64,000 bases of DNA from an uncultured delta proteobacterium (GTDB taxonomy: Bacteria > Desulfobacterota > RBG-13-43-22): contig CAWBOS010000010.1 in NCBI GenBank assembly GCA_963790475.1, forward strand, positions 224,001 through 288,000, given 5' to 3'. This document shows positions 14,260 to 64,000 of this stretch, piece by piece (the first letter of the stretch is position 1; each line of letters starts with the position of its first letter). Under the pieces are notes generated by a model, which worked only from the letters and a program-made list of their open reading frames with translations, had not been told where the DNA came from and made no database searches. The translations under genes and the position numbers were made by a program.

Positions 14260-14338
14260 AACAGACCATAGAAAGGGCTGAGAAAAAGCGTTAATCTTCA
14301 ACACGGGGTCCCTCGTCAAGCTTTAAGATAGAGAGGAT

Positions 14339-14664: not shown

Positions 14665-14709
14665 TATTCAAAAAACTGAATCTTTTATGTCATGTTCGGA
14701 GGCAAGAGG

Positions 14710-45808: not shown

Positions 45809-45853
45809 TAGCTGATAGCTGATAGCTGATAGCTGATAGCTGATAGCTGATAG
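45803..45853. repeat. Perfect heptamer microsatellite (AGCTGAT)x7
   Basis: Seven exact copies; the first contains the ftsH stop codon. Confidence 0.95.
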
Positions 45854-45948
45854 AAATTTTGTTTCTTTTGAATTTTGTCAATTGAAAATTTGGGGGAATC
45901 TGATTTTCCTTCAGCTTCGAACTTTGAACTGAAGAAAAAGAATTATTG

Positions 45949-46809: not shown

Positions 46810-47627
46810 ACGGGTTCGGGTTCTTATTTCAACATATACGCTGGCAGGATGTGGTGGACGTCCTGGTAGTCGCTTTTATCATTTATCAGATTTTTTTGCT
46901 GATCAAAGGGACCCGGGCCGTACAAATTTTACTGGGCATGGTGGTTATTTTCGTAGCTTTTTTGATTGCCAGGAAGGTAGAACTGCTCACCCTGCACTGG
47001 ATCTTGAGTAATTTCCTCGGTTCCATCATCCTGGTCATTATTATCCTTTTTAAGTCCGAAATCCGAAGGGTGCTGGCCCAGGTGGGCCGCAGTCCTTTTG
47101 TCAGAACCCCGGCCGAAACCCTTCAAACCATCGAAGAAGTCATCAAGGCGGCCGTTTATCTTTCCAGTCATCTCACTGGGGCCTTGATTGTCTTGGAAAG
47201 ACAGACCGGACTGAACGACCATTTAAGATCCGGAACGGTGATGGATGCCAAGGTCAGTTGGGAATTACTGGTGAGTATCTTCCATCCCCAGTCACCGATG
47301 CATGATGGGGCGGTTATTATCCAGAACAGTAAGATAACGGCGGCCGGCTGTTACCTTCCTCTGACCCGGAATACCCGGGTCAGCAAAAGTTTCGGGTCCC
47401 GACATCGGGCGGCCCTGGGGTTATCGGAAGAAGCGGATTCGGCGGTTGTAGTGGTATCCGAAGAGACCGGGCGTATTTCCGTGGCCATCAACGGCCGGTT
47501 TACACGAGGTCTGGATTCGACCACCCTGAAAAGGGTCTTGCAAACCTTGTTTGCCAAAGAAAACGGGCGCAGGGTCTATTGGTTGTTCGGGCCCCGGAAG
47601 CCTTCACGGCCAAAAGGTGACCGATAA
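46806..47627 (+). CDS. cdaA: Diadenylate cyclase
   Basis: Three TMs; DAC motifs HDGA and RHRAA; VSEETG. Confidence 0.95.
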   Translation: MNGFGFLFQHIRWQDVVDVLVVAFIIYQIFLLIKGTRAVQILLGMVVIFVAFLIARKVELLTLHWILSNFLGSIILVIIILFKSEIRRVLAQVGRSPFVRTPAETLQTIEEVIKAAVYLSSHLTGALIVLERQTGLNDHLRSGTVMDAKVSWELLVSIFHPQSPMHDGAVIIQNSKITAAGCYLPLTRNTRVSKSFGSRHRAALGLSEEADSAVVVVSEETGRISVAINGRFTRGLDSTTLKRVLQTLFAKENGRRVYWLFGPRKPSRPKGDR

Positions 47628-48256
47628 TGAAAAATTGGCATTTCAAACTCCTGGCAGTCCTTCTGGCCGTCATCATGTGGTATTTTGTGGTCGGAGAAGA
47701 ACGGGCTGAAGTGGGGTTGACGGTCCCACTGGTACTGATCAATATGCCTCGGGATTTGATCGTGGTCAACAACGTCCCCCATGGAATAGAGATACGGGTC
47801 AACGGGCCGAGAAGCCTGGTTCAATCCCTTTCCACGGAAAATTTGAGCAAAAGCCTGGATCTCTCCAACACCCGGGAAGGAGCGGTTTCCTTTTCGATTT
47901 CTTCCGAAGGGATCCCTTTGCCCCGGGGAGTTAAAATCACCCGGATCAATCCCACTCAGGTGACGGTGGTCCTGCAAAAATTAATGATAAGGAATATTGC
48001 CGTTAATCCCCGGGTGACCGGAAGACCGGACCCGGGCTTTGAGGTGGAATCGGTTCGAGCCCACCCCGAACACGTGGATATCGCCGGACCGGAAGACGTA
48101 GTCAAAAAGATAGAGGGCCTGTATACCAAACCGATCGACATTCAGGGATTGAAGGCTGATTTGAAACAGCGGACTTTTCTGGATTTCCGGAATTATCAGA
48201 TTTATTTGGTCAAAGAGGCACCATTGGAGGTTGAAGTAAAAATAAAGAAGAGGTAA
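47627..48256 (+). CDS. cdaR: YbbR/CdaR family regulator
   Basis: N-terminal anchor plus two YbbR-like domains; lies between cdaA and glmM. Confidence 0.88.
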   Translation: MKNWHFKLLAVLLAVIMWYFVVGEERAEVGLTVPLVLINMPRDLIVVNNVPHGIEIRVNGPRSLVQSLSTENLSKSLDLSNTREGAVSFSISSEGIPLPRGVKITRINPTQVTVVLQKLMIRNIAVNPRVTGRPDPGFEVESVRAHPEHVDIAGPEDVVKKIEGLYTKPIDIQGLKADLKQRTFLDFRNYQIYLVKEAPLEVEVKIKKR

Positions 48257-48294
48257 CAGTTTAACTTTTTATTAACCGGAAATAAGGAGAAGCG

Positions 48295-49647
48295 ATGCGG
48301 AAACTATTCGGTACCGACGGGATCCGGGGGGTGGCCAATGTTTACCCCATGACGGTAGAAGTGGCCCTGCAGCTCGGAAAAGGTTGCGCCTATATTTTTA
48401 AAGACAAGAACCGGCGCCATAAAATTGTGGTGGGAAAAGATACCCGGTTATCCGGATATATGATAGAAACGGCCATCACGGCCGGGATCTGTTCCATGGG
48501 AGGGGATGTAATCCTGGTCGGGCCCCTGCCGACCCCGGGGATCGCTTTCATAACCACCAGCATGAGGGCTGATGCCGGTATCGTAATTTCCGCTTCTCAT
48601 AATGCTTATCAGGACAACGGGATTAAAATATTTTCCAGTAACGGATTTAAGCTGCCGGACCAGATGGAGGAACGGATCGAGGCCCTCATGTTTTCCGAGG
48701 AGCTTTCTTCCTCCACGGTTACGGCCAATAAGGTCGGAAAGGCCTTCCGCATCGAAGATGCCATCGGCCGTTATATTGTTTTTTTAAAAAATACCTTTCC
48801 CCAGGAATTGACCCTGGATGGGATGCGTATCGTCCTGGACTGTGCCAATGGGGCCACCTACAAGGTCGCCCCCACGGTTTTCGAAGAATTAGGGGCCGAA
48901 GTGACCTTGCTGGGGGCCAAACCCAATGGTGAAAATATCAATAAAAATTGCGGGGCCCTGTATCCCGGGTTGATCAGTGCCATGGTTCGGAAAAAAAAGG
49001 CCGACCTGGGAATCAGTTTTGATGGGGATGGCGACCGGGTGGTTTTTGTGGACGAAAACGGGGAAATCGTCAATGGGGACCAGATAATGGCCATCTGTGC
49101 CAGCCGGATGTTCAAGGAAAGAAGGTTGAAAAAAAGCACTCTGGTTACCACCGTTATGAGCAATATGGGGCTGGAAGTGTCCATGCGGGAGAAGGGTATC
49201 CGCCTTATCCGGACTCAGGTGGGAGACCGCTACGTGGTGGAGGAAATGGTCAAACGGGGCTGCAACTTCGGCGGGGAACAATCGGGTCATTTGATATTCC
49301 TGGATCACAACCCGACCGGAGACGGGATACTGAGTGCCCTGCAACTGCTGGCCATCATGCAGAAGGAAGAAAAGAGCCTTTCCGACTTATCGGATATTAT
49401 GGATCACTATCCGCAGAAGCTGGTCAATGTCCGGATAAAGGAGCGCCGGCGGCTGGAAGAATTTCCGGCCGTAATCCAGCAGATTAGAAAGGTTGAAAGA
49501 AAACTGGGCGAAAAAGGGCGGCTCCTGGTTCGTTTTTCGGGAACGGAACCCCTGGTCCGGGTCATGGTGGAAGGAGAAGATGAAAAAGAAATTCAGGCCC
49601 TGGCTGCAGAAACAGCCCGGGTGATCGAGAGGGAATTCAATGCCTAA
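48295..49647 (+). CDS. glmM: Phosphoglucosamine mutase
   Basis: [34 protein letters not shown]. Confidence 0.97.
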
Positions 49648-50431
49648 GAAAACGAAAGACCTTCTGTTGGTCATTGATGTGGGTAATACCAACATCGTAT
49701 TGGGGGTCTATGATGGGCTGACCCGCCTTTGTGATTGGCGTATCCGTACCGAACGGGATGCCACTATGGATGAATTGGGGATCTCCTTTAAAAATCTTTT
49801 CACCACCAGAGATTTGGCCCTGGAACAGATCGGCCATATGATCATCTCCTGTGTGGTTCCGCCTATGCTCTATACCCTGGAAGAATTCGGTAAACGCTAT
49901 TTTAATCTGCGTCCCTTCTTTGTTGGGCCGGGAATCAAGACCGGTATGCCTATTTTTATTGATAACCCTAAAGAAGTGGGGGCCGACCGCATCGTCAATG
50001 CCGTGGCCGCCTATGAAAAATACCGGACCAATTTGGTCGTAGTGGATTTCGGAACGGCGACCACTTTTGATTATGTTTCCGAAAAGGGAGAATTCATGGG
50101 CGGGGCCATCGCCCCGGGAATCCTGATCTCCTGTGAGGCCCTGTTTCAAAAGGCCTCCAAACTGCCCCGGGTGGAAATCTTTACCCGACCTAAAACCGTC
50201 TTGGCCAAAGATACCATCAGCGCTATGAACGTGGGCATTATTTACGGCTATACCGGGCTGGTGGACGGGTTGGTCCAGCGGTTCATAGACGCCGTAACCC
50301 CCAAACCCAAAGCTATCGCTACCGGCGGACTGGCCCCCCTGATCGCCTCCGAATCCAAAACCATCGAAGCCGTCGAACCTTACCTGACCCTGGAGGGGCT
50401 GCGGATTATTTATGAGCGAAACCGACCGTAA
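49640..50431 (+). CDS. coaX: Type III pantothenate kinase
   Basis: [31 protein letters not shown]. Confidence 0.96.
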
Positions 50432-50628: not shown

Positions 50629-52170
50629 CCTCATAGTTGCATAATAAAAGTGCATAAAACACCATGAAAATGCTTGAAGGTGGCTCCAGTATTGGCTAAA
50701 GTGAAATTAGCACATCTCAAAAGAACCGATACAGGAGGCCACCTAAGGTGAAGTATAGCAAAAGGAATATTTTTAGTCGAATGTTTAAAATTCCAGCCAT
50801 CAAGTTTGAAAATCAACAATTGACCTCATTTGCCGGGCTAGTTATTTATCAGCCACTGCTCCAGAACCTGAATCTCAAAGCACAACTCAAGAAATGTTTT
50901 GACCATTTAAAAGTTTCCGAGATATTTGGTCATCACCTCATTATGCTTCTTTTGATCTTTCACCTTTTACTGGGTTTCCGTAAGCTGAGGGATCTGGATT
51001 ATTACCAAGATGATCCCTTGATCAAGCGTTTATTAGGGTTAAAAAGGCTGCCAGAGGTCTCAACGGTTTCTCGCGCTTTGCGAACGATTGATATTTCGGC
51101 CATCGAAAAAGTTCGGGAACTATGCCGGAACCAGGTTATTGCCAGACTGCAAAAGTTGGCTCCTTTTCGTCTGACACTGGATTTTGACGGATCCGTTCTT
51201 TGGACCTGTCAGCGTCGAGCGGAGGGAACCGCTGTGGGGTATAACAAAAAGAAAAAAGGAGCCCGCAGTTATTATCCTTTGTTCTGCACCATTGCCCAAA
51301 CCGGGCAGGTTTTCGATACCCTGTTTCGTTCCGGAAATGTCCACGACTCTAATGGAGCACGGGAATTTATCGAACAATGCCTACGCCTCTTGAAGGAAGC
51401 CCTTCCCGGCGTAATCATAGAAGCCCGACTGGACAGCGCCTTTTTTAACGATAACCTCGTACCGTTTTTAGAAGAACAAGGGGTTGAGTTTACTCTGTCA
51501 GTGCCTTTTGAACGTTTTGCCGAATGGAAACAAATGATCCAGGAGCGAAAACGTTGGAAGCGGCTGGATGACCGATGGTCTTGGTTTGAAACGTTTTGGA
51601 AACCCAAGAAATGGGATAACCGATTTCGTTTCCTGTGCATCCGTCAACGAGTCTCCCTGGCTTTCCGAGGTCCGATTCAACTGGACTTATTCGTTCCTCG
51701 GGAGGAAGGCTACGAATTTAAAGTCATCGTAACCAACAAGCGGGTCAAGGCTAAGAAGGTATTGATGTTCCATAATGGGCGCGCCGACCAGGAAGGACTC
51801 TTTGGAGAATTGAAATCTCAAGCTCAAATGGATTATATCCCTGTTCGTCGCTGGGGCGGAAACCAGCTTTATACGATGGCTGCAATCATGGCCCACAATT
51901 TAACCCGCGAATTACAAATGGCGGCTCGTCCAAGGGAAAGAGGGACGACCGAGAAAAGAGCCCCTCTATGGTGTTTTGAAGAATTAAAAACTTTACGCCA
52001 TCTGATTATTCAAAGAGCAGGGAGATTAACGTTACCCCAAAAGCAACTAACCCTGACGCTTAATGGAAATGAATCAGTCCAAAGAGACTTTTTTGTGTAT
52101 CTGGATGCTTTTAAAAAGGCCGCCTGATCGGTCTTTACAAAATTTGCACTTTTTTTATGCAACATCCGGG
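50629..52170 (+). mobile_element. IS1380-family insertion sequence (1542 bp) with 4-bp TTAT target duplication
   Basis: IRL CCTCATAGTTGCATAATAAAAGTGCA vs reverse-complemented IRR CCCGGATGTTGCATAAAAAAAGTGCA; TTAT at 50625-50628 and 52171-52174. Confidence 0.92.
50748..52127 (+). CDS. IS1380 family DDE transposase
   Basis: LTSFAGL, TLDFDGS, YYPL, FRSGNVHDS, RLDSAF, HNGRADQEGLFGELK. Confidence 0.92.
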   Translation: MKYSKRNIFSRMFKIPAIKFENQQLTSFAGLVIYQPLLQNLNLKAQLKKCFDHLKVSEIFGHHLIMLLLIFHLLLGFRKLRDLDYYQDDPLIKRLLGLKRLPEVSTVSRALRTIDISAIEKVRELCRNQVIARLQKLAPFRLTLDFDGSVLWTCQRRAEGTAVGYNKKKKGARSYYPLFCTIAQTGQVFDTLFRSGNVHDSNGAREFIEQCLRLLKEALPGVIIEARLDSAFFNDNLVPFLEEQGVEFTLSVPFERFAEWKQMIQERKRWKRLDDRWSWFETFWKPKKWDNRFRFLCIRQRVSLAFRGPIQLDLFVPREEGYEFKVIVTNKRVKAKKVLMFHNGRADQEGLFGELKSQAQMDYIPVRRWGGNQLYTMAAIMAHNLTRELQMAARPRERGTTEKRAPLWCFEELKTLRHLIIQRAGRLTLPQKQLTLTLNGNESVQRDFFVYLDAFKKAA

Positions 52171-52323: not shown

Positions 52324-52617
52324 GTGATCAAATCGTTCTTGGACAAGGGAACTGAGGATATTTTTGATCGCAGAGTTTCAATGGAAGCCCGACCTACCTG
52401 TCCAAAGAACATTTGGCGTGTTGCGCAGCGGAAACTTGATCAACTGAATGCGGTGGTTTCCTTGAGTTCCCTTCGCCTTCCTCCTGGAAACCGGTTGGAG
52501 TCACTGAAACAGGATCGGCTGGGGCAGCACAGTATAAGAATCAATGATCAGTTCCGGGTATGCTTTGTTTGGACCGAGAAGGGACCGGAACAAGTTGAAA
52601 TTACAGATTACCACTAA
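52324..52617 (+). CDS. higB: HigB toxin (RelE/ParE superfamily)
   Basis: MIKSF.DKGTEDIF, AQRKLDQL, PPGNRLESL, HSIRINDQFRVCF, EITDYH. Confidence 0.94.
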   Translation: MIKSFLDKGTEDIFDRRVSMEARPTCPKNIWRVAQRKLDQLNAVVSLSSLRLPPGNRLESLKQDRLGQHSIRINDQFRVCFVWTEKGPEQVEITDYH

Positions 52618-52635: not shown

Positions 52636-52962
52636 ATGTTTCGCATTCCGACCAACAGGCCGCCGACGCATCCCGGCGAGATGCTTATGGAGGAATTTCT
52701 TAAACCGCTGAAAATGACCCAGGTGGAATTGGCGCAAAAACTCGGAGTCTCATATCCGCGCGTTAATGAATTGATCCATAAAAAAAGGGGCGTAACACCG
52801 GACACTGCTCTGCGGCTGGAGCACTTGTTTGGCATGGAGGCCCAGTTTTGGCTTAATCTGCAATTAGCCTGGGACTTATACCAGGTTGCCCATTCTCCCA
52901 TAGAAAAAGAAATTCGAAAAATAAAACTACTGCCTGCACTTGCTCGAGCAGTAAATGAATAA
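52636..52962 (+). CDS. higA: HigA antitoxin
   Basis: PTHPGEML.EEFLKPL, HTH, RGVTPDTALRL, FWLNLQ. Confidence 0.94.
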   Translation: MFRIPTNRPPTHPGEMLMEEFLKPLKMTQVELAQKLGVSYPRVNELIHKKRGVTPDTALRLEHLFGMEAQFWLNLQLAWDLYQVAHSPIEKEIRKIKLLPALARAVNE

Positions 52963-53131
52963 AGACTAAATGGACCTGATAGACTAGACAGACCATATGA
53001 CTAGACAGACTAAATAGACCAGAAAGAGTTGACTTTAACTGTTTGTTATGGTTTAAATATTTAATTAATTTTTAGCTTCTTTGATTTCGGAAACCCTAAA
53101 CCCGGAAGGCGGGCCCATGAAGCAGTCCGAT

Positions 53132-53172
53132 AAGACCTCATCTTTTGAAAAAGAAGATGGGGTTTTTGTTTT
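53132..53172 (+). terminator. Intrinsic terminator upstream of the four-gene operon
   Basis: AAGACCTCATCTTTT / AGAAGATGGGGTTTT stem with G-U pairs, then T-run. Confidence 0.6.
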
Positions 53173-53312
53173 GGGGTAGATGACAAGACCTTTTAATTGA
53201 AAGTTTCTTTGAAGGGCAATTTAATCAGTAGCTTCCGAGGCAGCAAAGAGTTTGGAATTTTTGGTATATTTAAGAGTTAACCCTTGGAGTTACTATATCC
53301 ATTATTGTATCT

Positions 53313-56300
53313 ATGAAAATGACGCATTCAAAAATAACAAATATATTTCAGTATCTTAAAGATTATAACAATAAACGGAACCCCATCAAGCGGTCCATTA
53401 AGGATTATGAGTGGTATTTAAAAATTGAGGAACTTCCGGACCACCCACGAGTGAAAATTGGATCATTTATAGAAAATGAAGGCGAACTTATCAGTGATGA
53501 TTTTATTTTGAAGGTACAGAGACCAAACCTTACAAAACCACCAGTACCACCAAAAATTTTGGGCGACTGGCTGAAAAAAGGATGGGAGCGTGCAGATGGA
53601 AATGTTGAGGTAAACCAATCGAGAAATGCCCAGGATAAAAATGGTAAAACTATTATTATACAATTCAAAGATGATCAGGGCACGGTTGAAGCCTTCAAAA
53701 GATGGAAAAACGAGTGGAATGAATGGGCTCGAAGTGAGCGCCCCGCCCTTGCAGCTGCAAAGCTCTTCGAAAAGCTTTTTGCACTCTATGGGACGATTGA
53801 GCGTGAGGCAGAGAAGGTTGAAATCGTGCTTGGTGAGGGAATTATCTCCTTCGATAATCCAAACGGCTGTGTGCACCACCCCATACTTTTTCAGAAGCTT
53901 CAATTGGAGTTTGACCCAGAAACGCCGCTCTTCACTGTTAGGGAAACAGATCATCCTGTGGAACTTTATTCGTCGCTATTTCTTGAAATACCCGATGCAG
54001 ACGGAAACTTAATAGCACAATATAGGAAAAATCTTGAAGAGCTTCCGATACATCCGTTTGGTGGAACTACAACAACCGGTTTCCTCAAGCGTCTTGTTCA
54101 AAGTCTATCATCACAAGGTGAGTTCGTTGAAGTAGGAGAACCTGTAGGAACCGCTGACCATATCAGAATAGGCCGCGCCCCATACATTTTCATGCGCAAT
54201 AGGGCACTAGGCTTCGCGTCGGCAATTGATGCAATCCTTGCCGATCTTCAGGGGAGACAAGACTTTCCTTCGGCCCTGCTTAATATTGTAGGGGTTGAAG
54301 GGAACCCGACTAATAATACAGAGCAAACTGTAACACTTGAAGATCTTTCAGGGGGCGGAAATGAAGATACCGATATCCTGCTCAGCAAAGATGCCAATCC
54401 AGAGCAATTAGAGATTGCGCGAAGGCTTGATAAGCATGGCTGCGTGCTCGTCCAGGGTCCTCCTGGAACTGGTAAAACACATACAATCGCCAATCTTATT
54501 GGACATCTCCTGGCACAAGGAAAGCGTATCCTTGTAACGAGCCATACTACGAAGGCACTTCGCGTGTTGCGAGAGCATGTTGTTGAGGATCTGCGTCCAC
54601 TCTGTGTAAGCGTACTCGATCGTGACACCGACAGCAGGAACCAACTCAATAGCGCTATCAGGACGATAGATGAAAAATTTACTTCTCTCAACTTGCATAC
54701 AATCGAGCAGAAGACCCAGACTCTAAAGCAACAAAGAACCAAGATCGTTGAGGCTCTGAAAAAAGCCAGACATGAACTCAATCTGGCAATGGGAGATGAA
54801 TACCGCGACGTGGTTGTTGCGGGTTGTGCATATTCGCCTTCGCAGGCCGCACGTATCGTTGCTGATGGAATCGATAAAGATGATTGGATCCCTGGTCCTC
54901 TGCCGCCCGGCGAGCCCCTTCCTATCACGGTTGATGAGATCTCACGACTGTACAATTTAAACGAGATTATAGTGAAGGATGATGAAGAAGAGCTGCGAGA
55001 CAACAACCTTCCGGATGCATCGGAATTTTTATCGCCTGACGATTTCGAAAAACTGGTTTTTGAAAAGAAGGCACTTTCCTCTAAAGATTTACATCTGGGT
55101 GAGTCACTTTGGGTAGACAGTAATGCAATAACAGTTATCTGCCCATGCGGTGTCAGCAATAGGCTGAGAGAAAAATGGCTGGGCGTTGCTTCCCGATGCA
55201 AAGACTGCAAACAAGAACTGACCGTCGAAACAGGACGAGGTTACGCCTATAAGTCTCTCGGGATTGATTCGCTAAACGATCTTTTACGGCAAGTCCAGTC
55301 CTGTGTTGAACCTTTATGCACACAAAATATTTCTGAGTGGTCATTGATGATTGTGCAGGGTGGAATGCGCGGTTTAGAAATTATACAAACTTGGAACACT
55401 CTCCTAAAACTTATTGACGAGACGAAAAAAACAGCAGCATCGACATCTGCATGGCTCATAAAGTATGTCCCTGAGATTATCTTTGAAGGTGATCCTGATG
55501 AAATACTGATAGTTCTTGATAAAATTGAACGACATATTGCACATTGCAAGTCACTTTCTCGTATTACCTTATTTCGACACAAAGACTGGAAGAACCTAAT
55601 AGATAGATGCAGGATAAACGGCCACCTACCGAAAACTGCCGAACATTTTCAGGCATTGATCGCGTATGCAAAACTTGTCAGTCTGCGTAGGTCACTGATT
55701 GATCGCTGGACACGCATGATTACCGCTCATGGAGGCCCTGCTATAGATCAAGGCATCCTAACGCCCGAAATGATTTGCGCTCAGTATGTCGATTCAATTT
55801 CAGTTTGGCTCAATTGGCATCAAAAGCAATGGACTCCATTGGAAACAGAATTATCAACTGCGGGACTGAAGATGCAGGATCTTTTTAACCAGCAACCGCC
55901 TGTCCTATCGGAGAATGGTGAAATTATTCGTCTGACCAATGCGATCAATAATCTACCTGCAATAGTTGAAATGAGGGCAAAGAGGTTGCGGTTGGCATCA
56001 ATTAAACGGCAGCTCAGACGGCTATATGAAGCCATTCTTGCAAAATCCGAGAAAATATCCTCTTCTGTTTTGAATGCCCTGAAAAAGGCTATTGATCAGG
56101 AAAATTGTTCTGCCTATCGACAGGCAATTGCTCGTTTATATGAACTCCTCTCAAAACGTGAGCAATATATAGAAAGATACGAATTATTAGAGCGTTTGAA
56201 TCAGAGCGCCCCCCAATGGGCATCGTTGATTCGTGATCGCGTTTCTCCCCACGACAGGCGGGATATGCCCGGCGATGCCCAGAAAGCGTGGCTCTGGCGC

Positions 56301-58283
56301 CAATTCGAAGAAGAACTTGACCGCCGCGCATCAAAGTCCATTCCGGACTTGCAGAAGAAAATTGAAGACCTTAAAAGTGAGCTTAGCCGAATTACCACAG
56401 TATTAATATTTCACTTAGCCTGGGGGCGACAACTCAGTCGATTAAGTGGCCAGATAGAATTTAGGCAAGCACTGAGAGCGTGGATGTTTGTAATAAACAA
56501 GATCGGTGCTGCAACGGGAAAGAAGGTCCCCATTTTATCCCGCGAAGCCAAGAAACTCATGGTTAAATCCCAGGATGCCGTTCCTGTATGGATTATGCCG
56601 CTATCGCGAGTGGTTGAAAACTTTGATCCGACAAAAGCGCATTTTGATGTGGTTATCATTGATGAGGCAAGTCAAACTGACCCCTTGGGCCTGACGGCAT
56701 TCTATATGGCCGATAAGGTTGTGGTGGTTGGTGACCATGAACAGGTCAGCCCGGATGCGGTTGGTGTCAGCGATGAAATTGCCTTGGGACTCATCGACCT
56801 GCACTTATCAAGGTTCGACAATAAAATGCTCTTTTTGCCGACAAGTTCCGTGTATGAACTGGCACGGGCCAGCTTTGGGGCAACTGTACAACTCAATGAA
56901 CATTTCCGCTGTGTTCCTAATATTATCCAGTTCAGCAACCATCTTTCCTATGATGGCAGTATTAAGCCCCTGCGAGATGCATCAGCCTCTGCCCTATTGC
57001 CGCATACTGTCGCATACTGTGTTGATGGTGCGACGTCTGATAATAAAGTAAACGATTTGGAGGCCGTGACCACGGCATCCCTGATGGTGGCGGCGATGGA
57101 ACAACCGGAATATAATGGCAAGGAATTCGGTCTCATCTCACTCGTCGGTGAAGATCAGGCTCTTCGTATTGAAAAAATTCTCAGGGAACATCTTCCACCT
57201 TCAGAAATCGAGTCCCGTCGGCTTGTATGTGGAAATCCACCGCAATTCCAAGGTGATGAACGGCATGTCATGTTTCTCTCTATGGTTGACGCACCAGGCG
57301 ATGGCGGACCCTTAGCAAGAAGGGATGCCGGTCCGAACGCCATGTGGAAGAAACGTTACAATGTCGCTGCCAGCCGGGCAAAAGACCAGATGTGGTTAGT
57401 CTATTCTCTCAACCCGTCGATTGACCTCAAGACGGGAGATATCAGAAGACGCCTTATCGAGCATGCACTCAACCCGATGGCCCTCACAAATATGCTTCAA
57501 CAAGGTGCAGCAAAGACCGAATCCGAATTTGAACGACGGGTACTTGAACGGCTGCTGAAAGAGGGATTCAAAGTTACCCCTCAATGGTGGGTAGGATCAT
57601 ACAGGATTGATCTTGTAATATCAGGAAATGGAAAGGATTTGGCGGTAGAGTGTGATGGCGATAGATTCCATACGCCAGAAAATCTGGTCGAGGATATGAC
57701 CCGCCAGGCAATCCTCGAAAGGCTCAAATGGACATTTGTGCGGATAAGGGGCAGCGAATTTTTCAGAAAGCCTGACAAGGCCATGTTGCCAGTCTTTGCA
57801 AAGCTCAAAGACATGGGAATTGAACCCATAGGTACAGCAAAAACGATTGATGACATTCCTCAATATGAGCTCAAAGATCGAGTTATTTCAAGAGCCAGCC
57901 AAATCAGAAATGAATGGGCAGATGGCACATATGATTTCCGCAAAGCAGAACCCAAATCTATCCATATTACACAAGAAGAGCTTCCACGCGATGCTCACGT
58001 AAAAGAAGCCGCGTCAGCCAGGTATGCCGAGACGGGTACGCTCATGGATCATCCGGTCGATGTCAGCATGCATCTGAATACCGGAAAATGGTTCCTGTGC
58101 ATTGGCGGCTCTGCTGATGGCGCAAGGCTGACGGTCATTACGCCCGAAGGGCGATTATTAAACATGAATGTTGACTTATTTGACGAACCAATTGAGAAGG
58201 GAATCAACTATCTAATGGTGAATGACATCATCACAAAAGCCCAGCTTTCGGCATATTTTGAATACATGAGCCGACAATCGTGA
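53313..58283 (+). CDS. UPF1/DNA2-like SF1 helicase with long helical insert and C-terminal Vsr/DUF559-like endonuclease
   Basis: QGPPGTGKT, VTSHT, DVVIIDEASQ, VGDHEQ, LNEHFRC, FQGDER, NVAASRAK; ESEFE...YRIDLV...AVECDGDRFH...RQAILERLKWTFVRI. Confidence 0.9.
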   Translation: MKMTHSKITNIFQYLKDYNNKRNPIKRSIKDYEWYLKIEELPDHPRVKIGSFIENEGELISDDFILKVQRPNLTKPPVPPKILGDWLKKGWERADGNVEVNQSRNAQDKNGKTIIIQFKDDQGTVEAFKRWKNEWNEWARSERPALAAAKLFEKLFALYGTIEREAEKVEIVLGEGIISFDNPNGCVHHPILFQKLQLEFDPETPLFTVRETDHPVELYSSLFLEIPDADGNLIAQYRKNLEELPIHPFGGTTTTGFLKRLVQSLSSQGEFVEVGEPVGTADHIRIGRAPYIFMRNRALGFASAIDAILADLQGRQDFPSALLNIVGVEGNPTNNTEQTVTLEDLSGGGNEDTDILLSKDANPEQLEIARRLDKHGCVLVQGPPGTGKTHTIANLIGHLLAQGKRILVTSHTTKALRVLREHVVEDLRPLCVSVLDRDTDSRNQLNSAIRTIDEKFTSLNLHTIEQKTQTLKQQRTKIVEALKKARHELNLAMGDEYRDVVVAGCAYSPSQAARIVADGIDKDDWIPGPLPPGEPLPITVDEISRLYNLNEIIVKDDEEELRDNNLPDASEFLSPDDFEKLVFEKKALSSKDLHLGESLWVDSNAITVICPCGVSNRLREKWLGVASRCKDCKQELTVETGRGYAYKSLGIDSLNDLLRQVQSCVEPLCTQNISEWSLMIVQGGMRGLEIIQTWNTLLKLIDETKKTAASTSAWLIKYVPEIIFEGDPDEILIVLDKIERHIAHCKSLSRITLFRHKDWKNLIDRCRINGHLPKTAEHFQALIAYAKLVSLRRSLIDRWTRMITAHGGPAIDQGILTPEMICAQYVDSISVWLNWHQKQWTPLETELSTAGLKMQDLFNQQPPVLSENGEIIRLTNAINNLPAIVEMRAKRLRLASIKRQLRRLYEAILAKSEKISSSVLNALKKAIDQENCSAYRQAIARLYELLSKREQYIERYELLERLNQSAPQWASLIRDRVSPHDRRDMPGDAQKAWLWRQFEEELDRRASKSIPDLQKKIEDLKSELSRITTVLIFHLAWGRQLSRLSGQIEFRQALRAWMFVINKIGAATGKKVPILSREAKKLMVKSQDAVPVWIMPLSRVVENFDPTKAHFDVVIIDEASQTDPLGLTAFYMADKVVVVGDHEQVSPDAVGVSDEIALGLIDLHLSRFDNKMLFLPTSSVYELARASFGATVQLNEHFRCVPNIIQFSNHLSYDGSIKPLRDASASALLPHTVAYCVDGATSDNKVNDLEAVTTASLMVAAMEQPEYNGKEFGLISLVGEDQALRIEKILREHLPPSEIESRRLVCGNPPQFQGDERHVMFLSMVDAPGDGGPLARRDAGPNAMWKKRYNVAASRAKDQMWLVYSLNPSIDLKTGDIRRRLIEHALNPMALTNMLQQGAAKTESEFERRVLERLLKEGFKVTPQWWVGSYRIDLVISGNGKDLAVECDGDRFHTPENLVEDMTRQAILERLKWTFVRIRGSEFFRKPDKAMLPVFAKLKDMGIEPIGTAKTIDDIPQYELKDRVISRASQIRNEWADGTYDFRKAEPKSIHITQEELPRDAHVKEAASARYAETGTLMDHPVDVSMHLNTGKWFLCIGGSADGARLTVITPEGRLLNMNVDLFDEPIEKGINYLMVNDIITKAQLSAYFEYMSRQS

Positions 58284-58302
58284 TGAACAAGGGGGGGAAC
58301 AT

Positions 58303-60735
58303 ATGTCTACAGAGCTGACGATACAAAGCCTTTTGCCGGCGATCAAAAAGAAAGAGGTCATACCAAGTACAGCAAGGACCTTTATCGGTATAGATTTTGG
58401 TACATCAACATCTGTTGTCAGTATGGCCATGCTCGATCCCGTAAAGACCATAGACATAAAAACAATTTGGATTGATCAGCTGGATTCAGATGGTATCGGC
58501 AAAATATCATCAGAAAAGGTTCCGACTGTAGTCGCCTGGCATAGGGATCGGCTGTTGATAGGCAAAGGGGCTGCCGACCTGAAATATAAAAATAAAAAGG
58601 GGGTGGATGTTTGGTATTCGTTCAAGATGGAACTGGGTGAAGATCTTGGACCGAAATACTATAATAGTAAAGTACCGACAATACGTCGTCCGGCTGATGC
58701 CGCTAAGGTCTTTTTCCAATATCTTAAGGATGAAATTGAGCGATTTGTCAAATCCAATAAAATGCCGCAGGCAATAGAATATGCTGTCAGCATTCCTGCT
58801 TCTTTTGAGGCCAACCAGCGGAGGGATCTAATTGGGGCGCTTGAGGCCGTTGGCATTAATATAGGCAGCCAATCTCTTATTGATGAACCAAACGCGGCAT
58901 TCCTTGGATATGTAGTCGAAACAAACACCGATAGAACCGTGGAAAAACTTTTTGTGCCGCCCGATTATCCTTTGCATATTCTAGTATTCGATTTTGGCGC
59001 CGGGACTTGCGATATATCCATCCTTGAAGTGGGACACGATATTAATGGACTCTATTCTAAGAATCTCTCCATATCGCGATTTGAAAAGCTTGGGGGTGAT
59101 GATATCGATCGCCTTATTGCCCGCCAGATTCTTTTCAAGCAGTTGCTCATTGATAATAATGTCAAAGAGAGTGATTTCAAAACACCCGATATTAACAAAG
59201 GCATTATCCCCAAACTGATGAAACCGGCAGAGGAGCTGAAAATACAAATCTGCAAAGCCGTTGCTCTTCAATACTCATTGGGTGAAAAACTCCCAGACCT
59301 TGCGCAGACTGATGCGAGAATATCTATTGGTGTTAACGACAAGATAACTCTTCCAAGGCAGCAATTATTCATGAATCAACTGTCCCTGACTTATGCCCAA
59401 TTCAAGGGGATCATGGAAATCTTTCTTGCAACGAAGAAAAAAAAGACCCCATCATATGAGGGACAGGATGAATTTGTTTCCATCTTCAATCCGATTGAGT
59501 CTGCCCTTAAGAAAGCAAATCCAAATAAAGATATAAAAGATATAAAAGATAAAATAAACTACGTCTTGTTGATTGGTGGCAGTTCAAAAAATCCCTATGT
59601 TCAGAATGCACTGAGCAATTATTTCCCCGATTCTGAAATATTATTGCCGCACGACCCCCAAACTCATGTTTCTGCCGGCTCGGCGATCCATTCAGTTATT
59701 TATAAAGGCTTTGGCAAGAACATCATCCAACCCATTACCAGTGAACCAATTATGGTAGTGACCAAGGGCGACTTGCTCCAAACGCTTGTCCGCGCCGGTA
59801 CAGAAATTCCGTCGGATGTCTTCGAGATTGACGACCTTTTGACACAAAGTGATGGCCAAAAAAAGATCGAAATCCCCATTTGTGTCTCCTCCAAAGAAAA
59901 AATATTACATGTCGCAACTATTGAGAGTCATGATCGAAAGGGATTCAAGGCAGGTATTCCAATCAAAATAAAATGTCAGATTACGGCTGATAAACTTCTC
60001 CTGATCGAGGCAATTATTGAAGATCAATCCTATCTGGTCGAGCCGCTCAATCCCCTTGCCAACAAACCGCTCGATTACTTCGAGCGGCGAATATATGAAG
60101 CTGAAAAACAATCTTATATCGATGCGGAAAGAAATGTTGGCACGCCAGGGAAAAAATCACTGATGCAACTCGCCCAGGCCTATGCTAAGGCTAGAAAGCA
60201 TCTACAGGCCGCCGAGACATTAGAAACCTGTAATGATCTCCATCCTGGTTCCGTGGAAACAGATTCAATCGCATTTAACTATTCTCGGTCAGGAAATCGG
60301 GAAAAGGCTCTTGACTATTACGAGAAAGCTTATAAAGAAAATCGATCCGCCCATACCGCATTCAACCTCGCTGTTACGATTGGCTGGAACGATCAAGAGC
60401 GCTATAAGGAACTCATGGAAAATGCCCTGAGACTAGATCCTCGCTATCCTTACTCTCTGTACTGTTACGGTGAGTTTTTGATGCATCAGCTTAAAGAGGA
60501 AAAAAGAGGACGTGACTTGGTCAAGAAGGCCATTGATATTTTTAAGGGATGGTTTGAAAATGGTAACCTGGATGACGATGATTATCCACGGCTAATCAAA
60601 TGCGCCAATCTCCTCGATGATAAGGTAACTGCACAAAAAGTGAAAGATAAGATGCCGAAAGATGACAACAAGCCTTATGTAGACGAAAACCTCCTGCAGG
60701 ACAAAGATGCAACAGCATTGACAAGGAGGAGATAG
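58303..60735 (+). CDS. Divergent Hsp70-family ATPase with C-terminal TPR-like repeats
   Basis: GIDFGTS, IPASF, DEPNAA, VFDFGAGTCDISIL, LGGDDID, LIGGSSK; tail EKALDYYEKAY, ENALRLDPRYPYSLY. Confidence 0.9.
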   Translation: MSTELTIQSLLPAIKKKEVIPSTARTFIGIDFGTSTSVVSMAMLDPVKTIDIKTIWIDQLDSDGIGKISSEKVPTVVAWHRDRLLIGKGAADLKYKNKKGVDVWYSFKMELGEDLGPKYYNSKVPTIRRPADAAKVFFQYLKDEIERFVKSNKMPQAIEYAVSIPASFEANQRRDLIGALEAVGINIGSQSLIDEPNAAFLGYVVETNTDRTVEKLFVPPDYPLHILVFDFGAGTCDISILEVGHDINGLYSKNLSISRFEKLGGDDIDRLIARQILFKQLLIDNNVKESDFKTPDINKGIIPKLMKPAEELKIQICKAVALQYSLGEKLPDLAQTDARISIGVNDKITLPRQQLFMNQLSLTYAQFKGIMEIFLATKKKKTPSYEGQDEFVSIFNPIESALKKANPNKDIKDIKDKINYVLLIGGSSKNPYVQNALSNYFPDSEILLPHDPQTHVSAGSAIHSVIYKGFGKNIIQPITSEPIMVVTKGDLLQTLVRAGTEIPSDVFEIDDLLTQSDGQKKIEIPICVSSKEKILHVATIESHDRKGFKAGIPIKIKCQITADKLLLIEAIIEDQSYLVEPLNPLANKPLDYFERRIYEAEKQSYIDAERNVGTPGKKSLMQLAQAYAKARKHLQAAETLETCNDLHPGSVETDSIAFNYSRSGNREKALDYYEKAYKENRSAHTAFNLAVTIGWNDQERYKELMENALRLDPRYPYSLYCYGEFLMHQLKEEKRGRDLVKKAIDIFKGWFENGNLDDDDYPRLIKCANLLDDKVTAQKVKDKMPKDDNKPYVDENLLQDKDATALTRRR

Positions 60736-60739
60736 TCAT

Positions 60740-61924
60740 ATGCCGTGGACATGGATGGTGCCTGAAAGAGATCTTTCTTCTGAACAAACTGATTTTCTGA
60801 ATGTCAACTTGCAGCGTTCTGGTAATATCTGGCTTCAAGGACACGCTGGCAGTGGTAAATCTATTCTTTTAGTCCATAGTGTTAAAAACTCTCTTGTTTC
60901 TAACAAAAACCTGAAGGTAGCTGTTGTAGTCTTTACCCACGCGTTGATCGACCTTTTAAGGACCGGCCTCAGGGAATTAGGTGTTGACAGTATCAATATT
61001 CCCATCATGACTTATTTTGAGTTCAAGGATAATAAGGAACGTTATGATGTAATTTTTGTTGATGAGGTTCAGGATCTGCCAAAAGACATTCTTGCGAGAA
61101 TGAAAAACCGTGCAGGGCGTATCATTGCAGCCGGTGATCAGATGCAATCAATATATCCCAATCGTGTATCTCCAGAGGAGATAAAAAGAATACTTTCTTG
61201 TCCTGGTTATCCTCTTAACGATATTTATCGACTGACAAAATCTATTGTAACGATCGTAGTCGCAATTCTAGGTAATATTGGTAATATCCTCAATGCAAAA
61301 ATCAATATGCAGAAAAAAGACCATGACATCTTAGTCGGAAATGCGTCTAACAAAATATCTGAGACTAACTATGTTTGGAAAAGGTCGAAAGCTTTTGCTG
61401 CAAATGGTTATCCAACCGTTGTTCTCCTGCCAAAACATAATGATATATTGGATTTTTTCGATCTTGTGTGCCAATTTGAGAATGCAAACGAATGGAAGCG
61501 GAGATACATAAGAAAAGGGAGAGGTAGCTTGCCGGATTACGAATCTCTCAACGAACATCTCAATGACCAGGATATTTTATTTGAGTATGTAGGGAACAGC
61601 TTTGGCTCACTGGAAAATGCAGGTAACAATAACAAAGTAATACTTATGACCGATCACAGTGCAAAAGGTCTTGACTTCGAGAATGTATTTATTCCGTGGC
61701 TCACGCATCAGTTCCAACTTGTCGGACAAACGGATATATTGAAAGAGGCCGTTTTCTATGTGGCGTTGACGAGGAGTAAAAACAACCTGGTCCTTACATA
61801 CCATGGCGATAAATACCATCCTTATTTAAATAAATTCATTAATAAAGGTTGCGTTACCTGTTTCGATATAGATAAAGAACTGCTGGCTGAAGATGAGGAT
61901 AATCCAACTAATCCAGAGTGGTAG
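60740..61924 (+). CDS. Compact UvrD/Rep-like SF1 helicase/ATPase
   Basis: LSSEQ, GHAGSGKS, FVDEVQD, AGDQMQSIY, YRLT, HSAKGLDF, YVALTRSK. Confidence 0.9.
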   Translation: MPWTWMVPERDLSSEQTDFLNVNLQRSGNIWLQGHAGSGKSILLVHSVKNSLVSNKNLKVAVVVFTHALIDLLRTGLRELGVDSINIPIMTYFEFKDNKERYDVIFVDEVQDLPKDILARMKNRAGRIIAAGDQMQSIYPNRVSPEEIKRILSCPGYPLNDIYRLTKSIVTIVVAILGNIGNILNAKINMQKKDHDILVGNASNKISETNYVWKRSKAFAANGYPTVVLLPKHNDILDFFDLVCQFENANEWKRRYIRKGRGSLPDYESLNEHLNDQDILFEYVGNSFGSLENAGNNNKVILMTDHSAKGLDFENVFIPWLTHQFQLVGQTDILKEAVFYVALTRSKNNLVLTYHGDKYHPYLNKFINKGCVTCFDIDKELLAEDEDNPTNPEW

Positions 61925-61933
61925 GAGGGCGTA

Positions 61934-63418
61934 ATGAAGATTAAAGCATTAATTCCTATGCCTTTAAGAAACTTTTATGAACTATATAAATACGGTTCGG
62001 TCCGCTTAGAAAGGGAATCTTGCGTCGCTTTTGAAAAATATGATGCAAATGGATATCCGGAGGTGGATCACACACAATTTGTGGAAAAAATTCCTTTCTT
62101 TGACTCAGATGATCAGGGGATCATCCTTGAGGGTGCGATTGACAAGAATACCTTTGAAAGTGTCAATTTTGATATCAGCGGTATTATCCAAGGTAGTTCT
62201 ATAAAGCTAAAGGGTCTTACTGTTGTTCCAGTTCCTCTGTTACTGCATATCGGAGATGTTATAAAAATTTATCCTCTGTCCGAAAATGCTTTACGCTCTC
62301 TCCCTGGGAAAATTGGCGATAATATTGCCCTGGAAAAGCCCGTTTTCCAGAATCTTTTTGAACAAGCAGTAGTAGGATGGGAAGAAATCATTCGGTCGCA
62401 AGGTGCCCAGGCGCTTTTTGAAATGAGTGGTTTAGATATGCCGCAAGACCGGAAACTTCTCGATAGTTTCCTTGATCAGGCCGAGAAGTACAAATTGACT
62501 AATCAAAAGCCTGACAAGGAAGGGCGTTTCCTCCTTCATGCTCTGGTTTATGAACGACGAGAACCATTTCCAAAATCCGACATCGGTATCCTGTTTGATC
62601 TGTGTAAGATTCTTGCCGATAAATCAGAGATGCCCAATTACAGGAAAACAAATTTTTTCGATAAGTTGGATAAAATAAAATCAAAATTTGACCATACCGG
62701 CATACTAGGGGTTCTACAGTATTTTGAAAGCGAACCTCATTATGAAAAAGTGCGAAAAATGACAACCCATGCTGAATGTCAGCATAAGGATTATATTACA
62801 GCAGCACTATTCACAAAATATAAGGAATTGCTGCGTGACGACAAGTACAAATCCGTTGAAATGATAAATGAGATACAAAAATTGTTTAATATTTTTCCAG
62901 AAGAAACCAAGACAGCCTTATATCTCATCGGTGCCTTCTTTTCTTATAAACGATTTTACAACGACTTGTATATATCAAAGCGGCTCAAGATTCTTAAAGA
63001 GTCAAGGGTCACGACTGAATCCAGCACTACTCCGGAAGAAGTTCCTTTAGGTCCTCAGGGCGTGTCAACAATCGAAGTTGTTGTCCCTGCAGAATCAAAG
63101 ATTTCTACATTAAAAAATGGGGAGAAACCTCTTGATGAAGCAAAGTCAGGTAAAGAAACAGAACCTCTTCCATTTCAAGGAGTTTCTAATGAAAAACCCT
63201 CTGTTATCCCTATCCAGGACGACGACAACAGAGAATCAATTCAACCATTGCAGCCTATAATCGAAAAAACAGACCAAAAACAGCCATTAGATAATTTAAG
63301 TGACAGCCTACTGTTCGAAGGAAAACCCACAATAGCTCAGGATAAGGGAATGTCGAAGAAGGAAAAAGGACGGAAACCGAAGATAAGTAAAAAGCTCGGT
63401 GATGAGGCCAAAAAATAG
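61934..63418 (+). CDS. Hypothetical protein with a low-complexity charged C-terminal tail
   Basis: 494-aa ORF, AGGAGG RBS, 9 nt after the helicase stop; no motif recognised. Confidence 0.85.
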   Translation: MKIKALIPMPLRNFYELYKYGSVRLERESCVAFEKYDANGYPEVDHTQFVEKIPFFDSDDQGIILEGAIDKNTFESVNFDISGIIQGSSIKLKGLTVVPVPLLLHIGDVIKIYPLSENALRSLPGKIGDNIALEKPVFQNLFEQAVVGWEEIIRSQGAQALFEMSGLDMPQDRKLLDSFLDQAEKYKLTNQKPDKEGRFLLHALVYERREPFPKSDIGILFDLCKILADKSEMPNYRKTNFFDKLDKIKSKFDHTGILGVLQYFESEPHYEKVRKMTTHAECQHKDYITAALFTKYKELLRDDKYKSVEMINEIQKLFNIFPEETKTALYLIGAFFSYKRFYNDLYISKRLKILKESRVTTESSTTPEEVPLGPQGVSTIEVVVPAESKISTLKNGEKPLDEAKSGKETEPLPFQGVSNEKPSVIPIQDDDNRESIQPLQPIIEKTDQKQPLDNLSDSLLFEGKPTIAQDKGMSKKEKGRKPKISKKLGDEAKK

Positions 63419-63531
63419 GATGCAGATGGAGGTCAAAACAGGCCTACATATTGACTTGAGAAAAATAGGGACGGCTGTTAATGCTCAGTAATTAGGTAAC
63501 TCTTTTGGGGAAGAAAGGATAGAGAGGGCCT

Positions 63532-64000
63532 ATGAAAATTACGATTATTTTCCCTGCTCGTGAGTTTGAAGTCGGACGGGCGATGATTCCGGTCATGCCC
63601 CTGGCGCCGACCCTCCTGGCAGCCCTGACCCCTCAGGGGCACGAAGTCACCCTGGTGGATATGGTCTATGAGGACCAGGTGAATTTTGAAGCGCCCTGTG
63701 ACCTGGCGGCCATTACCGTCAGGACTCCTTTGGCCGTGAAGGCCTACGAAATGGCCGACCGTTTCCGAGCCCAGGGCACAGCGGTGGTTCTGGGCGGGCC
63801 TCATGTTTTTGCTTTCCCCTCAGAGGCCAAAGGTCATGCCTCTGCCGTGGCTATCGGCGAGGCCGAGGAGCTCTGGCCCCGGATCCTGGAGGATCAGCAA
63901 AAGGGAACGCTACAGGATTTCTATGTCTCCGGCCCCTACAAACTTGAATCCCTTAACGGCAGTGTGCATCATGTTCCACTGCGCCCCGACCTTTCCAGGG
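63532..64000 (+). CDS. B12-binding domain radical SAM protein, 3'-truncated by window edge
   Basis: MPLAPTLLAALTP, AYEMADRFR..G..VVLGGPH, VAIGEAEELWP. Confidence 0.85.
   Translation, partial: MKITIIFPAREFEVGRAMIPVMPLAPTLLAALTPQGHEVTLVDMVYEDQVNFEAPCDLAAITVRTPLAVKAYEMADRFRAQGTAVVLGGPHVFAFPSEAKGHASAVAIGEAEELWPRILEDQQKGTLQDFYVSGPYKLESLNGSVHHVPLRPDLSR

Follow-up and report, generated by a model that had tools for sequence, protein, structure and literature searches.

Four co-oriented genes at one locus

We analysed a 64,000-nt stretch of DNA from an uncultured delta proteobacterium (contig CAWBOS010000010.1 of assembly GCA_963790475.1), referred to as the window, in which four consecutive genes on the forward strand encode a superfamily 1 (SF1) helicase fused to a nuclease (gene 1), an Hsp70-type ATPase with a tetratricopeptide repeat (TPR) tail (gene 2), a core-only UvrD-like helicase (gene 3), and a protein that belongs to no Pfam family (gene 4). 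The original prediction, made from this DNA alone, took the four for a single undescribed defence operon. Because comparison with other genomes separates gene 1 from genes 2–4, we consider this tempting four-gene system to be the junction of two modules. Judged by comparative sequence analysis, the block consists of a stand-alone helicase–nuclease and a separate, rare, mobile, and undescribed three-gene Hsp70 cassette.

All coordinates are window positions (Table 1). Loci that contain the cassette are labelled L, proteins of relatives P, and G005 is a relative from the same genus. As computed from the coordinates of the open reading frames (ORFs), genes 1–4 are separated by 19, 4, and 9 nt. 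Purine runs resembling ribosome-binding sites (GGGGGGG, AGGAGG, and AGGAGGG) are located 5–9 nt 5' of the ATG codons of genes 2, 3, and 4, respectively. The GC content, calculated per 1 kb, is 0.38–0.50 over positions 53000–63500, 0.48–0.55 at 44000–50000, and 0.50 at 63000–63999. The tight spacing and ribosome-binding sites that had been described for the locus are borne out by these values, as is its higher AT content relative to the core genes on the left. The catalytic motifs of the three ATPases, which had been read as intact, are indeed invariant among aligned relatives, as are those of the nuclease. Likewise, the genes are accessory, as had been proposed, and have no match to a named system in PADLOC, NCBIfam, or Pfam.

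Genes 2–4 are conserved together and gene 1 is not

About 1900 relatives of gene 2 were scored, most of them 802–816 amino acids in length and 47–58% identical. When one genome per species was scanned, 173 stretches were confirmed to encode a gene 2 relative, and 80 of these loci were examined. Gene 3 directly follows gene 2 in all 67 loci having at least 1300 nt of room, and the gene 4 family follows gene 3 in 59 of 59 loci (58 directly and L074 by profile). One profile iteration gathers all 62 ORFs at the gene 4 position into a single family (weakest E 3.6e-31). The spacing between genes 2 and 3 is -23 to +29 nt in 71 of 73 loci, the exceptions being L076 (87 nt) and L057 (a 1.18-kb insertion, 12400–13589), and that between genes 3 and 4 is -17 to +24 nt in 58 of 58. 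No fourth conserved gene was detected among 313 neighbour proteins, taken at up to three per side, the largest homology cluster having four members. The gene upstream of the cassette is on the opposite strand in 16 of 61 loci and less than 50 nt away in 6 of 61. Genes 2–4 constitute a sharply bounded, autonomous, and mobile operon.

Gene 1 adjoins the cassette in one of the 80 cassette loci (L009). Conversely, relatives of gene 2, 3, or 4 (E up to 1e-3) occur in none of 80 metagenome loci containing gene 1 homologues; these homologues are 39–48% identical to gene 1, and about half of the loci have over 2.5 kb of sequence downstream. No neighbour is constant in the gene 1 family, the largest neighbour cluster covering 11 of the 80 loci. 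Because its family members occur without the cassette and without a constant neighbour, we regard gene 1 as a stand-alone gene of the Hhe, ProA, and PDC-S37 kind. Neighbourhood conservation, which had been suggested as a check on the four-gene operon, holds for genes 2–4 and does not extend to gene 1. The notion of an undescribed operon with the Hsp70–TPR protein at its centre therefore survives, although its unit is three genes rather than four; the notion that the Hsp70 protein gates the helicase–nuclease as its effector is not supported.

Table 1. Features of the locus, in window coordinates.
Feature	Position	Strand	Description	Basis
DDE transposase gene (insertion sequence element)	50748–52127	+	left edge of accessory region	Pfam DDE_Tnp_1_4 2.7e-37
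higB-like toxin	52324–52617	+		Pfam HigB-like_toxin 4.5e-12
Helix-turn-helix (HTH) antitoxin-like gene	52636–52962	+		Pfam HTH_3 7.4e-09
Conserved non-coding 155-bp element	53029–53183	+	left border of variable slot; hairpin 53132–53166	79% match in G005
Gene 1	53313–58283	+	1656 aa, SF1 helicase and Vsr-like (MTES_1575/DUF559) nuclease	Pfam
Gene 1 nuclease domain, aa 1393–1498	57489–57806	+		MTES_1575 1.7e-26
Gene 1 C-terminal tail, aa 1546–1656	57948–58280	+	specific to cassette-linked clade	no Pfam match
Gene 2	58303–60735	+	810 aa, Hsp70-type ATPase with TPR tail	Pfam
Gene 3	60740–61924	+	394 aa, core-only UvrD-like SF1 helicase	Pfam
Gene 4	61934–63418	+	494 aa	no Pfam family
Gene 4 N-terminal β-rich domain, aa 1–145	61934–62368	+	folded alone	pLDDT 92.9
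Gene 4 all-helical domain, aa 146–355	62369–62998	+		pLDDT ~95
Gene 4 tail, aa 356–494, and stop codon	62999–63418	+	disordered, charged, variable; tails differ among homologues	pLDDT <50
pLDDT, predicted local distance difference test.

Distribution and mobility of the cassette

By record title, the hosts of the cassette are mostly Bacteroidota and also include cyanobacteria, Lachnospiraceae, Campylobacterota, and bins assigned to Bifidobacteriaceae, Gracilibacteria, and Syntrophaceae. The closest of these loci is in the Syntrophaceae bin (L009), with 75% identity in gene 2. Across this broad range the cassette occurs rarely and patchily. In 40 related genomes, gene 2 found only partial matches at the level of DnaK or HscA and no relative of full length. 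In a sample of 401 genomes from one phylum, three have the gene 4 family, which makes up 625 clusters at 50% identity among 1.84 billion representatives. A search of 50,697 phage records returned no cassette match, and one of 72,556 plasmid records returned one.

The Antarctobacter plasmid pSMS3-3 carries three genes of this type between IS6 and IS256 transposases, with generic RefSeq annotations ('Hsp70 family protein', 'AAA family ATPase', and 'hypothetical protein'). Its helicase is homologous to gene 3 (30% identity, E 5e-47), while homology of its third gene to gene 4 was not demonstrable (hhalign probability 9.6%). Hymenobacter sp. 102 has a chromosomal copy and a copy on plasmid unnamedB (L010 and L011) whose tblastn coordinates and identities are the same, which points to recent movement. 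Two cassettes lie ~18 kb apart on NZ_RSCL01000012.1 of Dulcicalothrix desertica PCC 7102 (L079 and L085), and a Rhodothermales bin has two on separate contigs (L037 and L038). The gene 3 ORF is shortened to ~270 amino acids in L015 and L027; these two and L057, with its insertion, may be decaying copies.

No model in PADLOC (2023), NCBIfam (2026), or Pfam names the cassette, and genes 2 and 4 are unnamed in them; matches in PHROGs are to generic helicase and Hsp70-like families only. We found no description of the cassette in the literature, including the DefensePredictor paper, in a search that covered main texts; supplementary tables might list one. Averaged over alignment columns, identity is 71% in gene 2, 45% in gene 3, and 19% in gene 4. 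Gene 4 is thus the fastest evolving of the three, as expected of a component that faces an invader.

The Hsp70–TPR protein and the minimal helicase

Gene 2 matches the Pfam family HSP70 (1.1e-26), with weak TPR matches at amino acids 619–680. Its nucleotide-binding domain (~25–470) is followed by a substrate-binding β domain that continues to ~620, and by TPR repeats (~615–750) at the position expected for the helical lid. Alignments with DnaK and Hsc70 structures in the PDB extend to residue 621. Amino acids D31, K108, E195, D230, T235, and D237, along with GGS at 425–427, are invariant, and we take these to be the catalytic set of DnaK from the PDB alignment and DnaK numbering. The Hsp70 of the cassette is apparently enzymatically active. 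It is not a canonical DnaK or HscA chaperone: its NCBIfam scores are 89.1 bits for DnaK (cut-off 648) and 87.7 for HscA (cut-off 708.55), TPR repeats are in the position of the lid, and none of the four genes belongs to a DnaJ or GrpE family. The host genome has a DnaK-like gene elsewhere (C15). The peptide preceding the ATPase domain (58303–58341) has an invariant T3 and P12 and a nearly invariant I7 and L10, and the C-terminus (60640–60735) carries a conserved Y-x-x-E-N-L motif; either peptide may serve for docking, within the protein or to a partner.

Gene 3 matches UvrD_C, AAA_19, and Viral_helicase1 in Pfam. Its SF1 motifs are all invariant across 43 sequences (Q16, GSGKS at 37–41, DEVQD at 108–112, GD..QS at 132–137, R164, T344, and R345). 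Most of 67 homologues have a low-complexity or flexible linker at the C-terminus that leads to an aromatic or hydrophobic end of the type [DN][FW][DG][FILW]. Examples are NFDF, PWGF, IFGI, and DFFF; the ending in the window is NPEW.

The protein encoded by gene 4

The predicted structure of gene 4 has a pLDDT of ~95 across amino acids 1–350. The helical domain contains the most conserved residues of the family (52 sequences), with Y206 and G333 invariant, and R208, G218, D222, and Y346 nearly so. No shared Pfam family was found among the 52 homologues at E up to 1. With the whole model, Foldseek returned nothing at E up to 0.001 in the PDB or in viral predicted structures, and VIA-align gave Z scores of up to 4.7.

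For the N-terminal domain alone, the twelve best VIA-align matches are DarT, Tpt1, CC0527, TreTu, TreX, and PARP-like domains, headed by DarT, Tpt1, CC0527, and TreTu at Z of 4.9–3.8. The match to DarT has a Z of 4.9 (rmsd 4.2, 110 residues aligned). All twelve presumably have the ADP-ribosyltransferase (ART) fold. The nearest named clusters in a protein atlas, DarT/PARP (0.80) and Arr (0.79), are a weak pointer in the same direction. The domain has no invariant His/Arg or Glu triad. These models weakly suggest an ART-like fold, which we consider a lead. ADP-ribosylglycohydrolases also appeared in weak matches to the helical domain (Z up to 4.2), and we did not rely on these.

Gene 1 is a helicase fused to a Vsr-like nuclease

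Gene 1 has an AAA_11/AAA_12 SF1 helicase core and an MTES_1575/DUF559 nuclease by Pfam. The helicase motifs GPPGTGKT and DEASQ are intact and invariant in relatives. In the nuclease, D1433, E1446, C1447, G1449, D1450, and H1453 are invariant in 18 of 18 aligned sequences, the ECDG motif corresponding to 1446–1449. The family is large (3545 scored relatives) and conserved over its full length, with a mean column identity of 53% (18 sequences). No Pfam family accounts for the N-terminal 360 amino acids, a 570-amino acid insert, or the C-terminal tail (E up to 1 for the N-terminus and tail). In gene 1, an SF1 helicase and a Vsr-like PD-(D/E)xK nuclease make up one self-sufficient protein, which most likely breaks down foreign DNA by itself.

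PADLOC gives partial matches of gene 1 to PDC-S37 (2e-47), MkoC, and Hhe. The best stretch against the 1550-position PDC-S37 model covers model positions 719–1342. We tried gene 1 as a member of two curated NCBIfam families, and its scores were 130.5 bits for Hhe (NF042953, cut-off 2000) and 168.8 bits for ProA (NF058533, cut-off 1500). As in these proteins and PDC-S37, the AAA_11/AAA_12 core of gene 1 precedes a DUF559/MTES_1575 nuclease in one large stand-alone polypeptide. However, the matches are limited to the C-terminal half (amino acids 1089–1508 for Hhe). Hhe carries a DUF3320 tail. Both DUF3320 and DUF4011, the N-terminal region of Hhe according to NF042953, are absent from gene 1 (Pfam E up to 0.01, and up to 1 for the N-terminus and tail). 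Because its scores are far below the curated cut-offs, we file gene 1 as an unnamed relative, and not a member, of Hhe and ProA; it also resembles PDC-S37, for which PADLOC gives no cut-off. We found no explanation of the name 'ProA' in the literature. An nSTAND3 match to gene 1 (33.4 bits, cut-off 27.2) overlaps a far stronger AAA_11 match, and an nSTAND_NTPase5 match to gene 3 (20.5 bits) is below its cut-off of 34; both were set aside as P-loop cross-matches rather than STAND cores.

Junction of gene 1 with the cassette

The window and L009 are 73% identical in DNA over exactly 53318–62979, a span that opens with gene 1 and closes inside gene 4, and are unrelated outside these limits. The two closest relatives of gene 1 (80% and 61% identity) and the two closest of gene 2 (79% and 58%) match in the lengths of their longest contigs (16463 and 15119). 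This suggests that two further contigs, besides the window and L009, probably hold the four-gene form. The promoter/terminator scan, which did no better than on shuffled sequences (27 versus 22.4 and 14 versus 10.0), predicted nothing resembling a terminator in the gap between genes 1 and 2. Because of this and the 19-nt gap, genes 1 and 2 are probably co-transcribed in this genome.

The tail of gene 1 contains a domain of ~75 amino acids that is 52–67% identical in P0125–P0128, and 0–19% identical or absent in 13 other aligned relatives. Of all loci examined, only L009 and the window match a profile of this domain. Tails also vary in the gene 4 family. Among 52 homologues of gene 4, one has a DUF3320 domain in its tail (Pfam, E up to 1), and one matches PDC-S37 of PADLOC through its tail domain; both are taken to be the L016 protein (13615–15276). 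The tail of this protein (amino acids 364–462) resembles amino acids 1478–1582 of P0182, a member of the gene 1 family (31% over 106 amino acids, E 2.7e-4). One pool of exchangeable C-terminal domains seems to supply the tails of both families. We read the arrangement in the window and L009 as a stable junction of two modules, and think it unlikely that they are functionally coupled in this clade.

In L009, the Hsp70 gene is split into overlapping ORFs (10001–10330 and 10233–12404) by a frameshift or an assembly error. Other large SF1 helicases occur 28–32 nt upstream of the cassette in L034 (6552–9968) and L061 (6283–9972), one with a Dna2-like region and DUF4145, and the other RecD-like. With gene 1, three unrelated big helicases are known in this position.

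Flanking regions

The left flank encodes, in order, CdaA, YbbR, a phosphoglucosamine-mutase (PGM/PMM)-type enzyme, a type III pantothenate kinase, a transposase, a HigB-like toxin, and an HTH protein, as assigned by Pfam, and the right flank opens with a B12-binding N-terminus. The insertion sequence and higBA pair noted beside the genes in the original prediction were thereby found. The core operon of cdaA, ybbR, the glmM-type mutase gene, and coaX (46806–50431) extends up to a break in synteny and is 84–88% identical in DNA in three relatives of the genus. Synteny ends at ~50460, directly past coaX, in all three same-genus relatives compared. The right-hand B12/radical S-adenosylmethionine (SAM) gene is present in 4 of 13 genus relatives. 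In G005, it lies on a different contig, downstream of a 155-bp stretch that matches 53029–53183, and the place of genes 1–4 is taken by a 2.9-kb segment encoding a GDSL-type lipase and small, unrelated ORFs. The break in similarity and the different insert in G005 therefore place genes 1–4 in a variable slot. The insertion that had been proposed between coaX and the radical SAM gene is confirmed in part, through the loss of similarity past coaX, the different insert in G005, and the lack of a full-length gene 2 relative in the 40 related genomes.

The 155-bp element ends in a strong terminator-like hairpin and has no match in Rfam; it may encode a small RNA or mark the edge of an integration hotspot. 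The assembly that contains the window is reported as 100% complete with 9.68% contamination, such that not every contig need come from one organism; the left part of the window matches genus relatives.

Defence context and comparison with known systems

We scanned ten co-oriented proteins upstream of the cassette, which were picked for tight adjacency and not at random. Among them are a Type ISP restriction-modification enzyme, two HsdM proteins, the SF1 helicase with a Dna2-like region and DUF4145, a RecD-like helicase, a Schlafen/AlbA_2 protein, an HD protein, and an iREC protein. In PADLOC, the 112 upstream neighbours include strong matches to ZacC (3e-276), a type I methyltransferase (4e-203), PDC-S01 (8e-114), Cas1, DrmD, PglX, and DpdE. 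From this genomic context we infer a defence role, and genes 2–4 are a good candidate for a new kind of bacterial immunity.

The closest likeness in print that we found is the type III CoCoNuT system, in which CnuD (Hsp70-like nucleotide- and substrate-binding domains followed by HEAT-like repeats) is encoded with the SF1 helicase CnuH; the system is a prediction (Bell et al., eLife 2024, PMC11090510). Here too, Hsp70 nucleotide- and substrate-binding domains are followed by helical repeats, and an SF1 helicase is in the same predicted defence operon. The cassette differs in its TPR repeats, its core-only UvrD-type helicase, and its invariant Hsp70 catalytic residues; the Walker A-like motifs of CnuD, which we compared by its published description only, are reported as degenerate (PMC11090510). 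The hallmarks given for CoCoNuTs are a McrB-like GTPase with an NxD motif, a coiled-coil McrC-like DUF2357 protein, and nucleases of HEPN or other types (PMC11090510). None of these was found by Pfam in genes 1–4 and eight flanking ORFs, and without the McrB-like GTPase (CnuB) and the DUF2357 protein (CnuC) the cassette is not a CoCoNuT.

GTPase-centred conflict systems, likewise predicted, include an HSP70 paralogue and in some cases TPR or DnaJ-fused partners (Kaur et al., eLife 2020, PMC7159879). As described there, these are built from GAP1-N2/DO GTPases with GrpE, tubulin, or FNIII proteins, which are absent here, and have no helicase part.

Gene 3 has partial matches to several GajB models of the Gabija system, the best (3.5e-23) in three stretches of which the strongest is at amino acids 275–369. 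It is however ~200 amino acids shorter (394 amino acids against 502–679 profile positions). Gabija combines GajB with the OLD-type nuclease GajA, and no GajA model was among the PADLOC matches of the four proteins. Avs and other STAND proteins resemble gene 2 in idea only, as an NTPase joined to TPR repeats able to read a phage protein; the ATPase of gene 2 has the actin/Hsp70 fold, not that of STAND, and lacks a fused effector domain. Matches to MkoA and MkoC of Mokosh (PADLOC) are generic hits to helicase cores. We rejected Gabija, Avs, and Mokosh as identities for these genes, since each would require a defining feature that is absent here. For gene 4, the likeness to DarT and Tpt1 is confined to the N-terminal domain, for which ART-type proteins top the structural list at Z of up to 4.9.

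Interpretation

We favour, at a probability of roughly 55%, the explanation that one lineage has fused two accessory modules into a single transcription unit, one being gene 1 and the other genes 2–4, and that the latter most likely acts against phages or plasmids. Several observations weigh against this explanation. The probable co-transcription of genes 1 and 2 leaves space for cooperation between the modules. No recognised effector domain was found in genes 2–4 by Pfam, PADLOC, or NCBIfam, and the cassette has no J-domain or nucleotide-exchange partner, either in the four genes by Pfam or as a conserved neighbour. The defence-related proteins close upstream were chosen by adjacency, and the 131 downstream neighbours are mixed, with as many ordinary as restriction genes, and comprise DnaB, short-chain dehydrogenases, and sulfatases, along with two N6_Mtase and two Methylase_S proteins. 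The scores for an ART-like fold in gene 4 are weak (Z no higher than 4.9, Foldseek E of 0.1 or weaker), hhalign against a profile of 16 natural DarT sequences gave a probability of 2.8%, and the best-conserved acidic residue of the domain, a glutamate in 36 of 52 sequences, is glutamine in the window.

A single integrated system might still operate in this lineage, with the cassette regulating or targeting the helicase–nuclease and the clade-specific tail of gene 1 serving as a docking piece. The short gap without a terminator-like site, the DNA identity with L009 that spans both modules within unrelated flanks, the contigs that the nearest relatives of genes 1 and 2 appear to share, the conservation of the gene 1 tail in this clade alone, and the occurrence of an L016 gene 4 tail domain in a gene 1-family protein would all fit such a system. 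Nevertheless, gene 1 is absent from 79 of the 80 cassette loci and the cassette from all 80 gene 1-family loci, each module is conserved and apparently complete by itself, and neighbouring defence genes often move jointly without joint function. We consider an integrated system improbable. The cassette could instead be an addiction module, or a maintenance or DNA-transaction module of mobile elements that provides chaperone-aided loading or release of a helicase in replication or transfer. An Hsp70–helicase partnership has a precedent in replication, as DnaK, DnaJ, and GrpE free DnaB helicase from the lambda P protein and activate plasmid initiators. The absence of a known effector domain from genes 2–4, the insertion sequences that flank the plasmid copy, and the mostly ordinary genes downstream agree with such a role. 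Mobile elements of this sort are quite an unlikely explanation, however, as no integrase, replication initiator, or transfer gene is conserved (the largest neighbour cluster is 4 of 313), phage and plasmid records are nearly devoid of the cassette (0 of 50,697 and 1 of 72,556), it is often co-oriented behind restriction-modification and other defence genes, and the evolution of gene 4 is very rapid. Both the UvrD-like helicase and the Hsp70, whose catalytic residues are intact, belong to classic housekeeping families, and might suggest a cellular stress or repair chaperone set that has no role in conflict and was spread by chance. This is very improbable given a score far below the DnaK and HscA cut-offs (89 bits versus 648 for DnaK), a host genome with its own DnaK-like gene (C15), absence from all 40 relatives searched, the occurrence of the gene 4 family in 3 of 401 genomes of the phylum sample, and low GC content alongside an insertion sequence and a toxin–antitoxin pair.

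If genes 2–4 do form an immune module separate from gene 1, the Hsp70–TPR protein would be an ATP-driven sensor and switch. At rest, it would grip the core-only helicase by its flexible aromatic C-terminal tail, which may lie in the groove of the TPRs or the cleft of the substrate-binding domain, much as TPR co-chaperones clamp the C-terminus of Hsp70. A phage-made protein or nucleoprotein intermediate might then be captured as client, setting off the Hsp70 ATP cycle by which the helicase would be released or loaded. Gene 4 may provide specificity or an effector activity through its putatively ART-like N-terminal domain and conserved helical pocket. The predicted outcome would be a block of phage DNA replication or abortive infection, with gene 1 working in parallel as an independent nuclease. 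Our data show the order and limits of the genes, their conserved catalytic motifs, the mobility and patchy rarity of the cassette, and the independence of gene 1; the defence role, the contacts, the trigger, and the effector step of this scheme are all conjectural.

A bolder form of this scheme is tentative, and we think it more probably wrong than right. Genes 2–4 would here be the first autonomous antiviral system to run on an Hsp70 cycle, in which the Hsp70–TPR protein takes a phage client and licenses the tail-tethered helicase, and gene 4, as a divergent ART-fold protein, marks either a protein or the DNA laid bare by the helicase, halting replication. The clade of the window would also have captured a helicase–nuclease through its private C-terminal domain, yielding a two-armed system.

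Significance

To our knowledge, Hsp70 chaperones are known as helpers that phages exploit, and not as the core of a bacterial immune system. Within defence operons, Hsp70 has so far been a matter of computational prediction, and in other architectures (CoCoNuT and the GTPase systems). What is new here is the three-gene Hsp70 cassette, along with its lineage-specific junction to an Hhe-like helicase–nuclease. The results delimit a large unnamed family of such helicase–nucleases with exchangeable C-terminal tails. By putting a minimal helicase and a fast-evolving protein together with an Hsp70 that is apparently active, the cassette offers a small, testable model of how a protein-folding machine may be turned into a sensor or switch.

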